Positions 37,391 to 61,864 of a DNA stretch of 64,000 bases are shown one piece after another. The DNA is taken from contig CAYPLB010000005.1 in NCBI GenBank assembly GCA_964411565.1, positions 24,536-88,535 on the forward strand, in the 5' to 3' direction. Position 1 is the first letter of the stretch. Every line of letters starts with the position of its first letter. The stretch is from Candidatus Woesearchaeota archaeon (GTDB lineage: Archaea > Nanobdellota > Nanobdellia > SCGC-AAA011-G17 > GW2011-AR17). A program made the translations under genes and the position numbers. Under the pieces are notes generated by a model. It saw only the letters and a program-made list of their open reading frames with translations, searched no databases and had not been told where the DNA came from.

Positions 37391-37540
37391 TGGGACCGCA
37401 GGGATTCGAACCCTGGACACCTAGATATCTGAGAACAGTTCAAATAAACAAATTCATTTGATCTTCAGTTTCACTATGCTATTTTAAGCAAACTAGTGCT
37501 CTCCCAGACTGAGCTACGGTTTAATGCTCTTTTAAGACCC
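37391..37540 (-). tRNA. Intron-containing tRNA (anticodon unresolved); a ~60-nt intron in the anticodon region and a probable second small intron after acceptor nt 3
   Basis: Minus strand reads ACCG-TA-GCTC-AGTCTGGGA-GAGC ... GTGTC-CAGGG-TTCGAAT-CCCTG-CGGTCCC-A. The 5' acceptor strand continues only as ACCG. The GGG needed to pair with the 3' CCC lies 17 nt upstream (GGG|tcttaaaagagcattaa|ACCG). Confidence 0.55.
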
Positions 37541-55237: not shown

Positions 55238-56233
55238 TTATTCTACACTTATTTTGTTCCCTTCAACTAAAAATTTTACATCCAAGAATTTTTCAATAAC
55301 TTCTATATTTCTTTTAACATGATTTGTAAATTCAGGGACTATATAAGAACCTCCAGCTATAGCAATATAAGGTAACAACATATCTCCTGTATGTACATCT
55401 ACAGTACCATTTTCATAAGATTTTATCAAAGATCTAGCAGCCTCTTCCCCTACTAATTCAGCTCTTTTACCTCTTTCACCAACACAATCTCCTCCAAAAA
55501 AACTATTTTCAGTTTCAATTGTAATTTGTATTCCTGAACCAACACATAAAGCATCAGCATATTTCACCTTTACATCAACGGGTAAAGAAAATTTTTCTTC
55601 TAAGATTTTCTTAGCAGCATCTGCTTGCCTATCTGCAACCTTAGGGCTTTCTAATTGGCGACTTGCAACAGAAACAATTTCAATGTTCTTTATAGGTCCC
55701 TTTTCTAAAAGATCTAATCTCTTCAAATCAGCTTTTTTTGAATTTACCTCAACTCTTGCACCACCTTTTGGAAAAAAACCATGATGATCAACTTTTGAAC
55801 TTACTTCATATCCCATTTTTTTCAACAAAGGAAATAAAACATTATCAAAATAATAAATTGGAGGAGCAAATAATCCAAAAGTTGCACCTCCCTTTACTCT
55901 TATTAACAAATCTGTTTTTATTGTTGGTATCAATAAAGATTGTAATAACAAACCTATAGAACCTGCTGTATTAATCTCAACTTCCAATTCTCCACTTTTT
56001 ATTGTTTCAGGTTTAAACACAATTTTTTCAGAACCTAATTCTGCACCTGCAACTTCACCTTCACATAACTCTAAAGCTGCTAAAACTCCTTTCAAGTGTT
56101 GCTCTTTCAAACCTTTTTGTGGCCTTATTGCTCTAATATTATCCATAGAAAAATCTTTTCCTATTAATACAGATAATCCTAAAGCAGATCTAAGAATTTG
56201 TCCTCCACCTTCACTTCCATCAATTTCTATCAT
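55238..56233 (-). CDS. rtcA: RNA 3'-terminal phosphate cyclase
   Basis: N-terminal IDGSEGGGQILRSALGLSVL. Confidence 0.8.
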   Translation of the reverse strand: MIEIDGSEGGGQILRSALGLSVLIGKDFSMDNIRAIRPQKGLKEQHLKGVLAALELCEGEVAGAELGSEKIVFKPETIKSGELEVEINTAGSIGLLLQSLLIPTIKTDLLIRVKGGATFGLFAPPIYYFDNVLFPLLKKMGYEVSSKVDHHGFFPKGGARVEVNSKKADLKRLDLLEKGPIKNIEIVSVASRQLESPKVADRQADAAKKILEEKFSLPVDVKVKYADALCVGSGIQITIETENSFFGGDCVGERGKRAELVGEEAARSLIKSYENGTVDVHTGDMLLPYIAIAGGSYIVPEFTNHVKRNIEVIEKFLDVKFLVEGNKISVE

Positions 56234-57126: not shown

Positions 57127-59223
57127 TTAAAGAAAGTTTAGAAGTAAACCACCATATTTGATAAACAGTGGTACAAAGACTAAACTGATAATAGCCATTA
57201 GCTTCATCAAAATATTTAATCCTGGACCAGATGTATCTTTACATGGATCTCCTACTGTATCACCAATAACAGCTGCAGCATGACAGTGACTTCCTTTACC
57301 ACCATGAGCACCACTTTCAATATACTTCTTTGCATTGTCCCAAGCTCCACCAGCATTTGCTTTTGCAATAGCTAACACAACTCCAGCTGATAAAGCACCA
57401 GCAAGCACACCTGCTAAAGTTTCAACACCAAATAACAATCCTACTAATATTGGAGTTAAAACCACTAACAAACCAGGAGCTATCATTTCTCTCAATGCAG
57501 AAGCTGTTGCAATATCTACACACTTTGTAGAATCTGGTTTTGCTTTACCTTCCATTAGGCCTTCTATTTCTTTAAACTGTCTTCTAACTTCAACTATGAT
57601 AGCCTGAGCAGCTTTTCCTACAGACTTCATAGTCATAGCTGAAAACAAGAAAGGCAACATTGCTCCAAAAAACAATCCAGCAATCACTTTACTATCCAAT
57701 AGATTCACAGCATCAATTCCAGAAGCTAAGATAAAAGCACTAAACAAAGCTAATCCAGTTAAAGCAGCAGAACCAATTGCAAAACCTTTTCCTATAGCAG
57801 CAGTTGTATTTCCAGCAGCATCTAAAATATCTGTTTTGTTTCTAACTTCAGAAGGTAGACCAGCCATTTCTGCAATTCCACCAGCATTATCAGCAACTGG
57901 TCCATAAGCATCAATAGCTAAACCAATAACTAAAGTTGACAACATACCTAAAGCAGCAATAGCAATTCCATACATACCAGCACTTTGATATCCTACAAAA
58001 ATTACAATAGCTAACAATATAACAGGAATAACTGCACTTTCATACCCAAGAGCAATTCCTTGAATAATATTTGTAGCAGCTCCAGTTTCAGTAGACTTTG
58101 CAACTTTCTTTACAGGATTATAAGCATGTGAAGTAAAATATTCTGTTACTAAACCTATCAATAAACCTGCAATTAAACCAACTGCAAACGAAACAAAAAC
58201 TCCAGTAGCTCCATAAGTTACTTCATTGATATCAAAACTTGAAGGCAACCATATCTTTGTTAAAAAATACATTGATACTAACATTAGAGCTGATGAAATA
58301 ATTAATCCTCTCTTTAAAACTCTCTCAACATCACCACTAGTCTTTTTATTCAAACCTAATTTCATAAACCAGATTGTAATAAAAGCTGCTAGGATTCCAA
58401 TTGCTGAAATTGCTAAAGGATATAACAAAGCTGTTTCCATATTTATTCCACCAAAAGCTACAGCTCCAATAACTAAAGCAGCAGCAGTACTTTCAGCACA
58501 ACTTCCAAAAAGATCAGCTCCCATACCTGCAGTATCTCCAACATTATCTCCTACATTATCTGCAATAACAGCAGGATTTCTTGGATCATCTTCAGGAATT
58601 CCAGCTTCCAGTTTACCAACTAAATCTGCACCAACATCAGCAGCTTTTGTATAAATACCACCACCAACTCTTGCAAATAAAGCAATTGAGCTTCCACCAA
58701 GAGCAAATCCAGTAATAATTTCCATAGTAGTAATTGCTTCTAATCCCATTTGACTAAACAATAAATACAAACCACCTAAACCAATAACAGCAATACCTAC
58801 TAAAGCAAAACCTAATACAGCTCCAGACTTAAATGAAATATTAAAAGCTTTTTCAAGACTAGATCTTGCAGCATGTGTAGTTCTTACATTTGCTCTTGTA
58901 GCAATTTTCATACCTATATAACCAGCTACCATAGAAAGAACACAACCTAAAACAAATGCTAAAGCAGTCCAAGGAGCTTCATTAAAACTTGTTGAAGGGT
59001 GATCTAAAAAAATTGCAATAATCACACCCATTACGACTATAAACCAGGCCATAACTTTATACTCTCTCTTCAAGAAAGCCATTGAACCTTCATGAATAGC
59101 ATCAGAGAGTTCTTTCATCTTATCTGTTCCTGCAGGCTGTTTATTTACAACTTCAGCCAAATACTTTGCAAAAACTAAAGACAGAACTCCTACGACCAGA
59201 ATGAATAATATAAATCCTATCAT
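57127..59223 (-). CDS. hppA: Membrane-bound H+-translocating pyrophosphatase
   Basis: [16 protein letters not shown] and GDTVGDP signatures; about 16 TM helices. Confidence 0.85.
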
Positions 59224-59277
59224 TTATTTTTACCTCATAATTATACTCCCAAAAAAATAGAAAGGAATATTTAAAAG

Positions 59278-59661
59278 TTATGGTAAGGGGAAAAATTTTT
59301 CAGATACTGGTAAATCATAAATTACACAATTATCTAACCTAACTAGATTACGCTTTGCTAACATAATAGATCCCTTAAAATTTCTTGGGCTTTCAGAAGA
59401 AGAATTTCCTTGAAGAATTCCAATTCCCATTTGATTAAACAAATCCTCATCATCAAAAAATACATCAGCATATTTTAATTCCCATAATTTTTTATCAAAA
59501 TATATATCATATTCACTTGTTCTTGTTGTTAAACAATAATCACAAACAGAAATAACTCCCATACCAATTTGAGCTAAACCCAAGATTCTATAATCACTAC
59601 CAATTGTCAAAGTATATGCAGAAACAACATTACTTATTAACCCACTATTATCATATAACAT
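59278..59661 (-). CDS. Hypothetical protein
   Basis: 127-aa ORF. Confidence 0.4.
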   Translation of the reverse strand: MLYDNSGLISNVVSAYTLTIGSDYRILGLAQIGMGVISVCDYCLTTRTSEYDIYFDKKLWELKYADVFFDDEDLFNQMGIGILQGNSSSESPRNFKGSIMLAKRNLVRLDNCVIYDLPVSEKFFPLP

Positions 59662-59898
59662 AATTCAAAAAAGAAATTCCTTATTATTAAAGATTACTAA
59701 CTTTTTTCTCTAATTTCTTCAAATCTTGCAATCATTCTTCAAACTATTAATTTAAGTAAATAAACCCAAAAAACAAAACATTTATAAACTCCTATTTTTT
59801 TCGTGGAGTACATGGACAGATTCTTCTATGCTACATGGAAAAATGTAAATTTATTCATTCAGTTATTCAAATTAACTCATAGAAGATATTATGTCAAT

Positions 59899-59973
59899 GC
59901 CCTGATAGTGTAGTCCGGTCTATCATGAAGCCCTGTCGAGGCTTCGACCCGGGTTCGAATCCCGGTCAGGGCG
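59899..59973 (+). tRNA. tRNA-Asp (GTC)
   Basis: GCCCTGA/TCAGGGC acceptor, AAGCC-CTGTCGA-GGCTT anticodon arm, CCGGG-TTCGAAT-CCCGG T-arm, discriminator G. Confidence 0.85.
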
Positions 59974-59976
59974 TAC

Positions 59977-60111
59977 GGACCGGTAGCTCAGTTTGGTGGA
60001 GCACCTGGGGAGGGGAGTGAAGACAAATCATTATCATGAACCTCTTGGTGAAACTTTTACCAAGCTTTGGAAGATATCAGGTGGTCGCGGGTTCAAATCC
60101 CGTCCGGTCCA
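59977..60111 (+). tRNA. Intron-containing tRNA (anticodon unresolved), 3 nt downstream of tRNA-Asp
   Basis: GGACCGG/CCGGTCC acceptor, GCTC...GAGC D-arm, GCGGG-TTCAAAT-CCCGT T-arm; about 65 nt inserted between the anticodon-stem halves (CCTGG ... TCAGG) with an internal CTTGG/CCAAG hairpin. Confidence 0.6.
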
Positions 60112-60138
60112 CTATTAAAAATAGGAGAAAAAAACAAT

Positions 60139-60384
60139 ATGACTGAACTTGACATTGATGTTACAAAACATATCCTTGTGCCCAAACACGAAAAACTCTC
60201 TGAAGAGGAAGCTGAAGAAATTCTAAAAAATCTTAATACAAACACAAAAAGACTTCCTAGAATTGTATTATCAGATCCAGCAATTAAAGGATTAGATGCG
60301 GAAAGAGGCGATATAATCAGAATTACAAGAAAAAGTGAAACAGTCGGAAAAACATATTATTATAGGGTGGTTGTAGATGGATAA
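60139..60384 (+). CDS. rpoH: DNA-directed RNA polymerase subunit H (start moved to MTELDID)
   Basis: HILVPKHEKLSEEE...GDIIRITRKSETVG...YRVV resembles RpoH/Rpb5; the track ORF start at 60067 overlaps the tRNA. Confidence 0.8.
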   Translation: MTELDIDVTKHILVPKHEKLSEEEAEEILKNLNTNTKRLPRIVLSDPAIKGLDAERGDIIRITRKSETVGKTYYYRVVVDG

Positions 60385-61864
60385 TAAAAAATTACTAATT
60401 CAAAAATACTTTGAAGAACATTCTTTCATTGAGTCTAGCTTAGCTTCATTTAACAAATTTGTAGAAGTTGAAATGCAAAAAACTATTACTGAAATTGGAG
60501 ATATTATTCCAACAATTCTTCCTCCAGATGTTCAAGAATTTAGAATCAAATTAGATAAAATTTGGATTGAAAAACCACAAATTACTGAGGCTGATGGATC
60601 AAAAAGACCAATCTATCCAATTGAAGCAAGATTAAGAAAATTAACTTATGCTGCTCCAATATTCCTAGAAGTATCTGCTTATGTCGATGGGATCCAAAGA
60701 GAATCATTTGTAGCACAAATTGGAAAAATCCCTATTATGTTAAAATCAAAAAATTGTCATTTATACAAATTAAATGAGGAAGAATTAATTGATCATGGTG
60801 AAGATCCAAATAACTTAGGTGGATATTTTATTATAAATGGAAATGAGAGAGTAATTATTACAGTTGAAGATTTATTACCTAACAAAATTTTCTTCCAACA
60901 AAATAAAATTGGACCAAGTAAATATACTGCTAGAATTTTTTCTCAGAGAGGACCTTATAGTATTCCTCATGTAATAGAACAAATGAAAGATGGTATTTTC
61001 TACATTTCATTTACAAAGTTCAAAAGAATACCTTTATTTGCTGTAATAAAAGCATTGGGTATGACTAGAGATCAAGATATTATGCAGGCAATTTGTGACG
61101 AGAAAGAGTATGATGACATTTACATTAATTTATACAACTCTGTAGAATTACAAAATGTTGAAGATTCAACTGAATTTATTGCAAAAAAAGTTGGACTAAC
61201 TCAACCAAGAGAAGTAAGAATAGAAAGAACAACAGAACAACTTTATCATTACCTACTTCCTCATATAGGAATTACACAAAAAGAAAATAATCTAAAAGCT
61301 CATCATTTATGTAAATTAGTAAAAAGATTCTTACAAGTTTCAAAAGATGAAAAAACAATTACTGATAAAGATCATTATAAAAACAAAAAATTAAAACTTG
61401 CTGGAGAACTTATCTCAGATTTATTCAGAGTAAACATGAGAGTTTTAGTAAACGATATTCTTTACAACTTCCAAAGGCTTGTAAAGAGAGGAAAATTCCA
61501 ATCAGTAAAAATTATTATTAGGGACAAACTTTTAACTTCAAGACTAAATAGTGCAATTGCTACTGGTCAATGGGTTGGAGGACGAAGAGGAATAAGTCAA
61601 AACATTGCAAAAGTTAACTACTTAGATACTCTTTCACACTTAAGCAGAGTTGTTTCTTTACTTTCAGCTACACAAGAAAATTTTGAAGCTAGAGAAATTC
61701 ACTCTACTCACTGGGGAAGACTTTGTCCAATTGAAACTCCAGAAGGGACACCAATTGGTTTAAGAAAAAATTTAGCAATGCTTTCACAAATTACACAAAA
61801 GAATATTCCAGAAGAGAAAACAAAGAAAAATTTAGAAAATTTAGGAGTTAAACTGATAAAATGA
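60377..61864 (+). CDS. rpoB2: DNA-directed RNA polymerase subunit B'' (N-terminal portion of split B)
   Basis: Conserved RNAP beta-like N-terminal blocks; 4-bp overlaps with rpoH and rpoB1. Confidence 0.85.
   Translation: MDNKKLLIQKYFEEHSFIESSLASFNKFVEVEMQKTITEIGDIIPTILPPDVQEFRIKLDKIWIEKPQITEADGSKRPIYPIEARLRKLTYAAPIFLEVSAYVDGIQRESFVAQIGKIPIMLKSKNCHLYKLNEEELIDHGEDPNNLGGYFIINGNERVIITVEDLLPNKIFFQQNKIGPSKYTARIFSQRGPYSIPHVIEQMKDGIFYISFTKFKRIPLFAVIKALGMTRDQDIMQAICDEKEYDDIYINLYNSVELQNVEDSTEFIAKKVGLTQPREVRIERTTEQLYHYLLPHIGITQKENNLKAHHLCKLVKRFLQVSKDEKTITDKDHYKNKKLKLAGELISDLFRVNMRVLVNDILYNFQRLVKRGKFQSVKIIIRDKLLTSRLNSAIATGQWVGGRRGISQNIAKVNYLDTLSHLSRVVSLLSATQENFEAREIHSTHWGRLCPIETPEGTPIGLRKNLAMLSQITQKNIPEEKTKKNLENLGVKLIK

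Follow-up and report, generated by a model that had tools for sequence, protein, structure and literature searches.

A probable two-intron tRNA-Lys(UUU) gene

In the 64,000-nt stretch of a Candidatus Woesearchaeota contig that was analyzed here (CAYPLB010000005.1; hereafter, the window), the element at positions 59977-60111 of the forward strand, just downstream of a tRNA-Asp gene, would most likely (at a probability of about 0.9) be a functional tRNA-Lys(UUU) gene, which is interrupted by two bulge-helix-bulge (BHB) introns on either side of a micro-exon carrying the anticodon. Its acceptor stem (GGACCGG/CCGGTCC), D-arm (GCTC/GAGC), and T-arm (GCGGG-TTCAAAT-CCCGT) are intact, as had been stated in the initial annotation of this DNA, and align perfectly with the Rfam tRNA model (49.0 bits, E 5.8e-9), whereas a block of 70 nt in the anticodon arm is left unaligned. 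This block had been ascribed to a single intron of about 65 nt. An insert is indeed present between nt 30 and nt 38 of the tRNA, where it occupies 68 nt; however, it is composite, consisting of introns of 45 nt and 16 nt, which flank a micro-exon of 7 nt.

Exon 1 (59977-60007) comprises nt 1-30, that is, the 5′ strand of the acceptor stem, the D-arm, A26, and the CCUG portion of the anticodon stem; its extent is supported by a splice-site solver, in-silico splicing, and alignment. It is followed by intron 1 (60008-60052, 45 nt), predicted from a BHB scan at the non-canonical position 30/31. The micro-exon ACTTTTA (60053-60059) provides nt 31-37, as judged from in-silico splicing, the solver, and covariation of the pair 31-39. 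It contributes A31, which pairs with U39 and thereby closes the anticodon stem, followed by C32, U33, the anticodon UUU (60056-60058), and A37. Intron 2 (60060-60075, 16 nt), predicted by BHB scan and solver, resides at the canonical position 37/38. Exon 3 (60076-60111), delimited by Rfam, in-silico splicing, and the solver, encodes nt 38-73, including A38, UCAGG, the variable loop UGGUC, the T-arm, the 3′ strand of the acceptor stem, and the discriminator A; the CCA end is not encoded. Upon splicing, an anticodon stem of five Watson-Crick pairs (CCUGA/UCAGG) with the loop CUUUUAA would be formed. The spliced 74-nt product is recognized as tRNA-Lys(ttt) by ARAGORN, has passed a custom cloverleaf check, and possesses the characteristics of a class I tRNA, with stems of 7, 4, 5, and 5 bp, a 7-nt anticodon loop, U33, a purine at position 37, and the T-loop UUCAAAU. 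A split or permuted tRNA was considered and rejected, since all three exons are collinear at one locus, within 135 nt.

The sequences that had led the initial annotation to deny the element a canonical anticodon loop, namely GGAGGGG following CCTGG and AAGATA preceding TCAGG, are both present, and exhaustive enumeration agrees that a canonical loop is not obtained by removal of one intron. The proposed explanation, a non-canonical intron position or exon boundaries unlike a simple 37/38 junction, is appropriate for the 30/31 intron, but not for the second intron, whose position is canonical. CCTGG had been taken for one strand of the anticodon stem, the 5′ one; this strand, however, is made of CCTG and of A31 from the micro-exon. 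The initial annotation had also named the outcome that would speak against it, an overlooked intron of the standard 37/38 kind that leaves a clear anticodon. Half of this was found, namely a 37/38 intron with the anticodon UUU, together with the intron at 30/31.

Bulge-helix-bulge motifs at the predicted splice junctions

BHB introns are cut by the archaeal splicing endonuclease, and the exons are joined by an RtcB-type ligase. Both introns of the tRNA-Lys gene are framed by a motif of the 3-4-3 type, with 4/4 bp in the central helix. In the first motif (BHB1), the central helix is formed by CACC of exon 1 (nt 25-28, 60002-60005) and GGTG within intron 1 (60047-60050), all four pairs being of the Watson-Crick type; both strands were identified in the BHB scan and are supported by covariation in the related locus L002. 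The bulges are located at 60006-60008 (UG|G) and 60051-60053 (AA|A), the vertical bar denoting the predicted junction. The outer helix has 4 bp, two of them G-U, and is made of nt 21-24 and nt 32-35. In the second motif (BHB2), CTTT of the micro-exon (60054-60057, nt 32-35) is paired with GAAG (60070-60073) in a 4/4 central helix including one G-U pair, the inner helix is CAA/TTG, and the bulges are located at 60058-60060 (UA|C) and 60074-60076 (AU|A). The outer helix of BHB2 is identical with the anticodon stem as it exists after the loss of intron 1.

Comparison with related loci

Relatives were collected by means of RpoH, whose gene follows the tRNA-Lys gene. Among GTDB contigs with one genome per species, they belong to 'Candidatus Woesearchaeota' and to unclassified archaeal metagenome-assembled genomes (MAGs), and an RpoH-profile scan of metagenomes yielded 69 further loci. 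As judged from these RpoH relatives, the source of the window is a DPANN-type archaeon; an assignment to the methanogenic Methanobacteriales, suggested by the split rpoB and by the low G+C content (about 29% in the window), was rejected on this evidence. The order tRNA-Asp/tRNA-Lys(UUU)/rpoH is found at many divergent DPANN loci (designated L001-L074), down to an RpoH identity of approximately 50%.

A tRNA-Lys(UUU) gene devoid of introns, 74 nt long, is present at L004, where it follows tRNA-Asp at a distance of 3 nt and immediately precedes rpoH; it was this gene that pointed to CTTTTA within the insert of the window. Orthology with this gene would also lend indirect support to expression, correct splicing, and charging with lysine of the tRNA-Lys of the window. 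The anticodon recovered by the two-intron model thus is that of the syntenic orthologue. At L020, the same arm, CCTGA-CTTTTAA-TCAGG, is free of any insert. In the MAFFT alignment, the gaps of relatives fall exactly at the predicted junctions, those of intron 1 being delimited by L012 and L004 and those of intron 2 by L009 and L004.

The close relatives L001 and L006 (76% RpoH identity) have the same two introns and exons identical to those of the window; their precursors differ from that of the window by three substitutions, all of which are inside intron 1. Introns at both positions are also found at L007 (28 nt at 30/31, with a perfect 6-bp inner helix, and 15 nt at 37/38) as well as at L002 and L063, where introns of 49 nt at 30/31 and of 21 nt at 37/38 are of unrelated sequence. 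At L009, a 30/31 intron of 27 nt, with a perfect inner helix of 9 bp, is combined with a T-loop intron, and the 37/38 intron is missing. The 37/38 intron is the sole intron at L010, L012, L013, and L022; it is accompanied by a T-loop intron at L026 and L027, a T-loop intron alone is present at L015 and L016, and L024 has a D-loop intron. A long hairpin in intron 1 of L002 was at one stage regarded as homologous to the hairpin of the window, which was abandoned once the junctions had been solved.

In a comparative set of seven sequences, five with each intron, from which the structures themselves had been derived, 100% of the pairs in BHB1, BHB2, and the spliced anticodon stem are standard pairs, in comparison to 32-64% in slid controls. 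The central helix of BHB1 contains a compensatory change, C27-G being replaced by U-A in L002 (CACC/GGTG versus CATC/GATG), and compensatory changes are also found in its inner helix. The pair 31-39 is A-U in five sequences and C-G in two, by which covariation the first base of the micro-exon is tied to exon 3.

Folding and predicted order of splicing

In the folded primary transcript, the central helix of BHB1 has a base-pair probability of about 0.65, in contrast to 0.001 for that of BHB2. Enforcing BHB1 costs 1.6 kcal/mol over the minimum free energy (MFE) structure, whereas the cost is 7.3 kcal/mol for BHB2. BHB1 is further stabilized by pairing of the D-loop/D-stem region with the micro-exon and the 5′ end of intron 2. 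Since nt 32-35 are required both for the outer helix of BHB1, where they pair with nt 21-24, and for the central helix of BHB2, where they pair with GAAG, the two motifs are mutually exclusive, and splicing would have to be sequential. The gene thus combines two BHB introns with motifs that are unable to coexist, which is the configuration demanded for sequential BHB formation.

The pathway would start with the transcription of a dimeric tRNA-Asp/tRNA-Lys precursor, which, in view of the short spacer, would be parted by 5′- and 3′-end processing. As in established archaeal tRNA splicing, the endonuclease EndA would cut both 3-nt bulges of each BHB motif, an RtcB-type ligase would join the exons, and CCA would be added later. 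Splicing would proceed stepwise, with BHB1 most likely being processed first, as is favored by the folding of the primary transcript. With intron 1 removed and exon 1 ligated to the micro-exon, the CCUGA/UCAGG stem would form, by which the canonical BHB2 would be presented for cleavage. As a consequence, the heptamer exon would never be freed as a separate fragment.

The initial annotation had also pointed to a strong CTTGG/CCAAG hairpin as an element of the intron. Both halves exist (60044-60048 and 60060-60064); however, they enclose the micro-exon, and the hairpin overlaps the central helix of BHB1 as well as the inner helix of BHB2 and thus competes with both motifs. Its base-pair probability does not exceed 0.35, and enforcing it leads to a structure 2.7 kcal/mol above the MFE. 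It is therefore considered a competing fold, and a role as a functional intron element was not supported. Its partial conservation at L007 is explained by the constraint that the BHB motifs impose on its halves.

Evaluation of the two-intron structure and of alternative readings

Helices of 4 bp resembling a BHB core are common in any sequence, about a hundred being listed in the BHB scan of the locus, so that the motif alone proves little. More weight is carried by the combination of constraints. Exhaustive enumeration of single excisions did not reveal any that restores a 5-bp stem and a 7-nt loop with a pyrimidine at 32, U33, and a purine at 37, and the 18 one-excision registers enumerated were accordingly rejected. 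Among 18 two-excision solutions, central helices of 4/4 in both motifs were obtained only for the combination of 30/31 with 37/38 and for a 38/39 register variant. The same two solutions, both tRNA-Lys(UUU), were the only ones returned by the position-unbiased solver, by which as many as three BHB introns could be removed from any part of the whole precursor, provided that a complete cloverleaf resulted. Placement of intron 1 at 31/32, which would result in the stem CCTGG with a G31-U39 pair, was rejected because of a central helix of 2/4; position 30/31, which gives A31-U39, is preferred. When the insert was subjected to 2000 dinucleotide-preserving shuffles, all 2000 could be cut to some canonical arm and 105 provided two 4/4 central helices, but none (0/2000) also reached the minimum set for the flanking helices, namely 2 bp each for the outer and the inner helix of BHB1, 1 bp for the outer helix of BHB2, and 2 bp for its inner helix. 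The real sequence exceeds this minimum.

Several points weigh against the two-intron structure. The mature tRNA-Lys sequence, the splice junctions, and the splicing order are model-based predictions. The inner helix of BHB1 consists, in the strict register, of two G-U pairs alone, and a better helix, GAGG/CCUC, is obtained only if the register is shifted by 1 nt. Until intron 1 is lost, BHB2 has an outer helix of a single pair. In the intermediate lacking intron 1, adoption of the strict BHB2 would cost 5.7 kcal/mol over the predicted MFE, so that its register is supported by comparison, not by thermodynamics. The comparison itself comprises seven sequences, which also served for deriving the structures. 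In a catalytic-motif regular-expression search confined to the window, which is a weak test, EndA was not found. Finally, the central helix of intron 2 is also 4/4 if the cut is shifted to 38/39.

In this last arrangement, the same two introns would be present, with intron 2 extending from 60061 to 60076 and the anticodon loop reading CUUUUAC. It is deemed very unlikely. Neither an outer nor an inner helix would be left (0 and 0 bp), whereas the 37/38 register has an outer helix of 1 bp and an inner helix of 3 bp and is 100% paired across the relatives, and orthologues without an intron in the anticodon arm (L004, L020, L015) read CUUUUAA.

That the element might be a decaying pseudogene or tRNA-like remnant, the anticodon arm of which has been destroyed by an insertion, could be suspected from its being missed by the default tRNA finder and from its absence from the whole-window Rfam gathering search. 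The latter is a filter effect and does not speak against the gene, which scored 49 bits in the local search. All stems of the cloverleaf are intact, and the exons are 100% identical to those of L001 and L006 despite an RpoH identity of 76%, with changes having accumulated in intron 1. Furthermore, L007 and L002 retain both BHB motifs with different intron sequences and compensatory changes, and the double BHB with its flanking helices was not reproduced in any of the 2000 shuffles. The heavy use of AAA codons that would be expected at a G+C content of approximately 29% also speaks against a pseudogene. The concern for a pseudogene, which had been raised initially, is thus not borne out and would be highly unlikely to apply.

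A further possibility, to be rated as highly improbable, is that a box C/D guide RNA for 2′-O-methylation is embedded in intron 1, as is the case in euryarchaeal pre-tRNA-Trp, with GUGAAGA acting as the C box. The heptamer GTGAAGA, to which the initial annotation had drawn attention, is found at 60017-60023 and fits six of the seven positions of RUGAUGA; its occurrence is attributed to chance, however, since it reads GTGCAAA in L001 and L006 despite identical exons, and intron 1 of L007, with its 28 nt, lacks this segment altogether. As had been noted before, a D box is lacking, with no CTGA (CUGA) being present within the insert. A small internal hairpin predicted in the MFE structure of intron 1 is broken by an L001 substitution, and Rfam snoRNA families gave no match at E<=1 within 59000-61000. 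The guide RNA was rejected on these grounds.

Barely conceivable is one long intron (about 63-68 nt) at an unusual site with a non-canonical loop, the model favored in the initial annotation. It is also exemplified by ARAGORN, the use of which had been recommended as a check: the default run misses the second tRNA, and the run with introns allowed predicts a tRNA-Ile(GAU) (gat) with a 63-nt intron at 34/35 and the implausible loop GGGAUAU (GGGATAT in the DNA), which is without U33, has G32, and requires a stem shifted by one position. The cuts, which follow 60010 and 60073, do not match any excision for which a 4/4 BHB central helix was recorded, no single excision yields a canonical arm, and the syntenic orthologue is a tRNA-Lys(UUU). 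The program models one anticodon-loop intron only, and the homologous genes of relatives are called Stop, Val, Gln, Glu, Arg, and Pro; the tRNA-Ile(GAU) call was rejected, therefore, for want of U33 and of a BHB at its boundaries and for the inconsistency of the calls in orthologues.

Gene neighborhood and probable cotranscription

The tRNA-Lys(UUU) gene is preceded by an intronless tRNA-Asp(GUC) gene (59899-59973, forward strand; Rfam tRNA 59.6 bits, ARAGORN tRNA-Asp(gtc)), which likewise does not encode CCA. The discriminator of tRNA-Asp is separated from the first nucleotide of tRNA-Lys by the trinucleotide TAC (59974-59976) as a spacer, in accordance with the tandem arrangement described initially. 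The region 59850-60139 is base-identical across four independent metagenome assemblies, which excludes the locus from being an assembly artefact; it occurs in the JGI metagenomes 3300009374, 3300009378, and 3300007504 as well as in ENA ERZ23498658. A spacer of 2-3 nt is also found in the five relatives L001, L006, L007, L004, and L012. As 3 nt do not leave room for a promoter, both tRNAs would be released from a common transcript by the enzymes of end processing; cotranscription as one precursor, as had been suggested before, is the only sensible reading of this spacing. Across the loci L001-L074, the length of the spacer varies between 2-3 nt and over 150 nt, and at L023 and L029 the 3′ end of tRNA-Asp is tandemly repeated within it.

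The tRNA-Asp gene is preceded, at a distance of about 20-40 nt, by an AT-rich block that is conserved (59860-59880 in the window, 2215-2235 in L001, and 2233-2255 in L004) and reads (G)CAGTTATT(C/T)AAA...TTAAC; it may be the promoter of the tRNA dimer, composed of a transcription factor B recognition element (BRE) and a TATA box.

Downstream, 27 nt separate the 3′ end of tRNA-Lys from rpoH (60139-60384, forward strand; Pfam RNA_pol_Rpb5_C, E 3.2e-29), the first gene of the RNA polymerase cluster. It is followed by a split rpoB, whose open reading frames correspond to Rpb2 domains 1-3 and 4-7. The location directly upstream of the RNA polymerase operon had thus been recognized correctly. The 27 nt preceding the rpoH start codon (60112-60138) are without a T-run and contain GGAG at 60125-60128. 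The AT-rich sequence TATTAAAAATA (60113-60123) is too near the ATG of rpoH to serve as its TATA box. Given the absence of a T-run and the misplacement of this sequence, transcripts that start at the tRNA promoter may continue into the RNA polymerase operon, in which case the 5′ end of the operon mRNA may be made by 3′ processing of the tRNA.

In relatives, the tRNA-Asp(GUC) gene itself carries inserts in the T-loop, in the D-loop, or at 37/38 (L004, L015, L020, L026, L027, L048, L055, L019, and L002); examples are approximately 33 nt within the T-loop of the L004 gene (2285-2392) and the combination of D-loop and 37/38 inserts at L048. Several of these genes are wrongly labeled by ARAGORN (Thr, Tyr, Ser, Leu). 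In the window, a sub-threshold Rfam match to YrlA, a Y RNA-like family, extends from 59922 to 60043 (30.8 bits versus a gathering score of 69) and thus reaches from the 3′ portion of tRNA-Asp into the 5′ portion of tRNA-Lys. A real Y RNA was rejected, the match being explained by the tRNA-like module of that family.

At a distance of about 3.7 kb from the tRNA pair, the reverse strand encodes the RNA 3′-terminal phosphate cyclase RtcA (55238-56233; Pfam RTC, E 3e-63), adjoined by a gene for an H+-pyrophosphatase (57127-59223). RtcA generates the 2′,3′-cyclic phosphate ends that are used in RtcB-type ligation. Its nearness to the tRNA pair is probably a coincidence.

tRNA-Phe(GAA) with three predicted introns

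Four T-arm hairpins are found in the window in total, belonging to tRNA-Met, tRNA-Asp, tRNA-Lys, and a gene on the reverse strand (37391-37540), which gives a weak Rfam match (31.9 bits) and is missed by ARAGORN in default mode. The latter gene resolves as tRNA-Phe(GAA) with three predicted BHB introns, the spliced product being a canonical 74-nt tRNA-Phe(gaa). An intron of 17 nt is located at 3/4 (37537-37521), where the 5′ leader takes part in the motif as a 5-bp outer helix. The intron at 30/31 has 23 nt (37492-37470; central helix CACU/AGUG) and is separated from that at 37/38 (37462-37427, 36 nt; central helix CUGA/UCAG) by the 7-nt micro-exon ACTGAAG (37469-37463). A multi-intron layout including 30/31 and 37/38 is thus found in two of the four tRNA genes of the window, tRNA-Lys and tRNA-Phe.

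Relation to known systems and significance

The two-intron tRNA-Lys is within the realm of documented archaeal tRNA biology and does not call for a new mechanism. Up to three introns have been reported for archaeal tRNA genes (PMC3239211, PMC8450103); 30/31 and 3/4 are among the non-canonical positions, and introns of both kinds, canonical and non-canonical, are known to coexist in one tRNA (PMC4090602). If introns are closely spaced, formation of the second BHB has to await the removal of one of them (PMC8450103). Multi-intron tRNAs as found with SPLITS/SPLITSX and tRNAscan-SE 2.0 in Thermoproteales and other Crenarchaeota, Thaumarchaeota, Korarchaeum, and ARMAN-2 share with the present gene the 3-4-3 BHB motifs of protein-spliced introns and the coexistence of a non-canonical and a canonical intron. 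In contrast to the multi-intron tRNAs of crenarchaea, the host here is a low-G+C, DPANN/Woesearchaeota-like organism.

For DPANN lineages, a Woesearchaeota genome included, increased disruption of tRNA genes and incomplete predicted tRNA sets have been described (Kaneta et al. 2018, PMC5829648), the latter implying, according to these authors, that disrupted genes went undetected. Compared with the disrupted DPANN tRNA genes on record (PMC5829648; Fujishima et al. 2011, PMC3239211), the tRNA-Lys gene of the window, being missed by a default finder, would be an example of this undetected kind. In the open-access text, no description was found of a tRNA-Lys(UUU) with a 7-nt micro-exon of nt 31-37 in a tRNA-Asp/tRNA-Lys/rpoH cluster.

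The tRNA-Lys(CUU) of Nanoarchaeum equitans and of Staphylothermus is split at 30/31 (PMC4090602), that is, at the same site and in the same amino-acid family. The gene described here differs by its cis-introns, by pieces that are contiguous on one transcript, by the isoacceptor (UUU), and by a middle piece of 7 nt. A short, anticodon-bearing middle piece that is joined via BHB-like junctions, one at a canonical and one at a non-canonical site, is also known from the tri-split tRNAs of Caldivirga maquilingensis. The likeness to the euryarchaeal pre-tRNA-Trp intron with its box C/D guide is confined to a length of some tens of nucleotides and to a heptamer resembling a C box; lacking a D box and conservation of the heptamer in close relatives, and residing in a tRNA-Lys, the intron of the window is not a member of that class.

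The 30/31 intron recurs in the tRNA-Lys of several Woesearchaeota-like lineages and in the tRNA-Phe of the window. It is possible, if rather doubtful, that in tRNA-Lys it marks a site at which the gene was disrupted long ago throughout the DPANN, in which case it would share its origin with the 30/31 split of the Nanoarchaeum equitans tRNA-Lys(CUU). If this were true, the intron states encountered in the cluster (none, 37/38, 30/31, D-loop, and T-loop) would record stepwise gain and loss of introns as well as a route from cis-intron to split gene. In a weaker variant of this reading, the forced order of the mutually exclusive BHB motifs would be a safeguard that has been selected against the release of the 7-nt anticodon exon.

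Summarizing, tRNA-Lys(UUU), which would be essential for the reading of AAA codons at a G+C content of approximately 29%, is encoded by a gene that default tRNA finders miss or mislabel. Unless multi-intron BHB models are used, annotations of DPANN MAGs would seem to be without tRNA-Lys(UUU) and tRNA-Phe. The gene adds a comparatively supported DPANN case in which a 7-nt anticodon micro-exon is combined with obligatorily sequential BHB splicing, and the tRNA-Asp/tRNA-Lys/rpoH locus could represent a small natural series for the gain and loss of tRNA introns.

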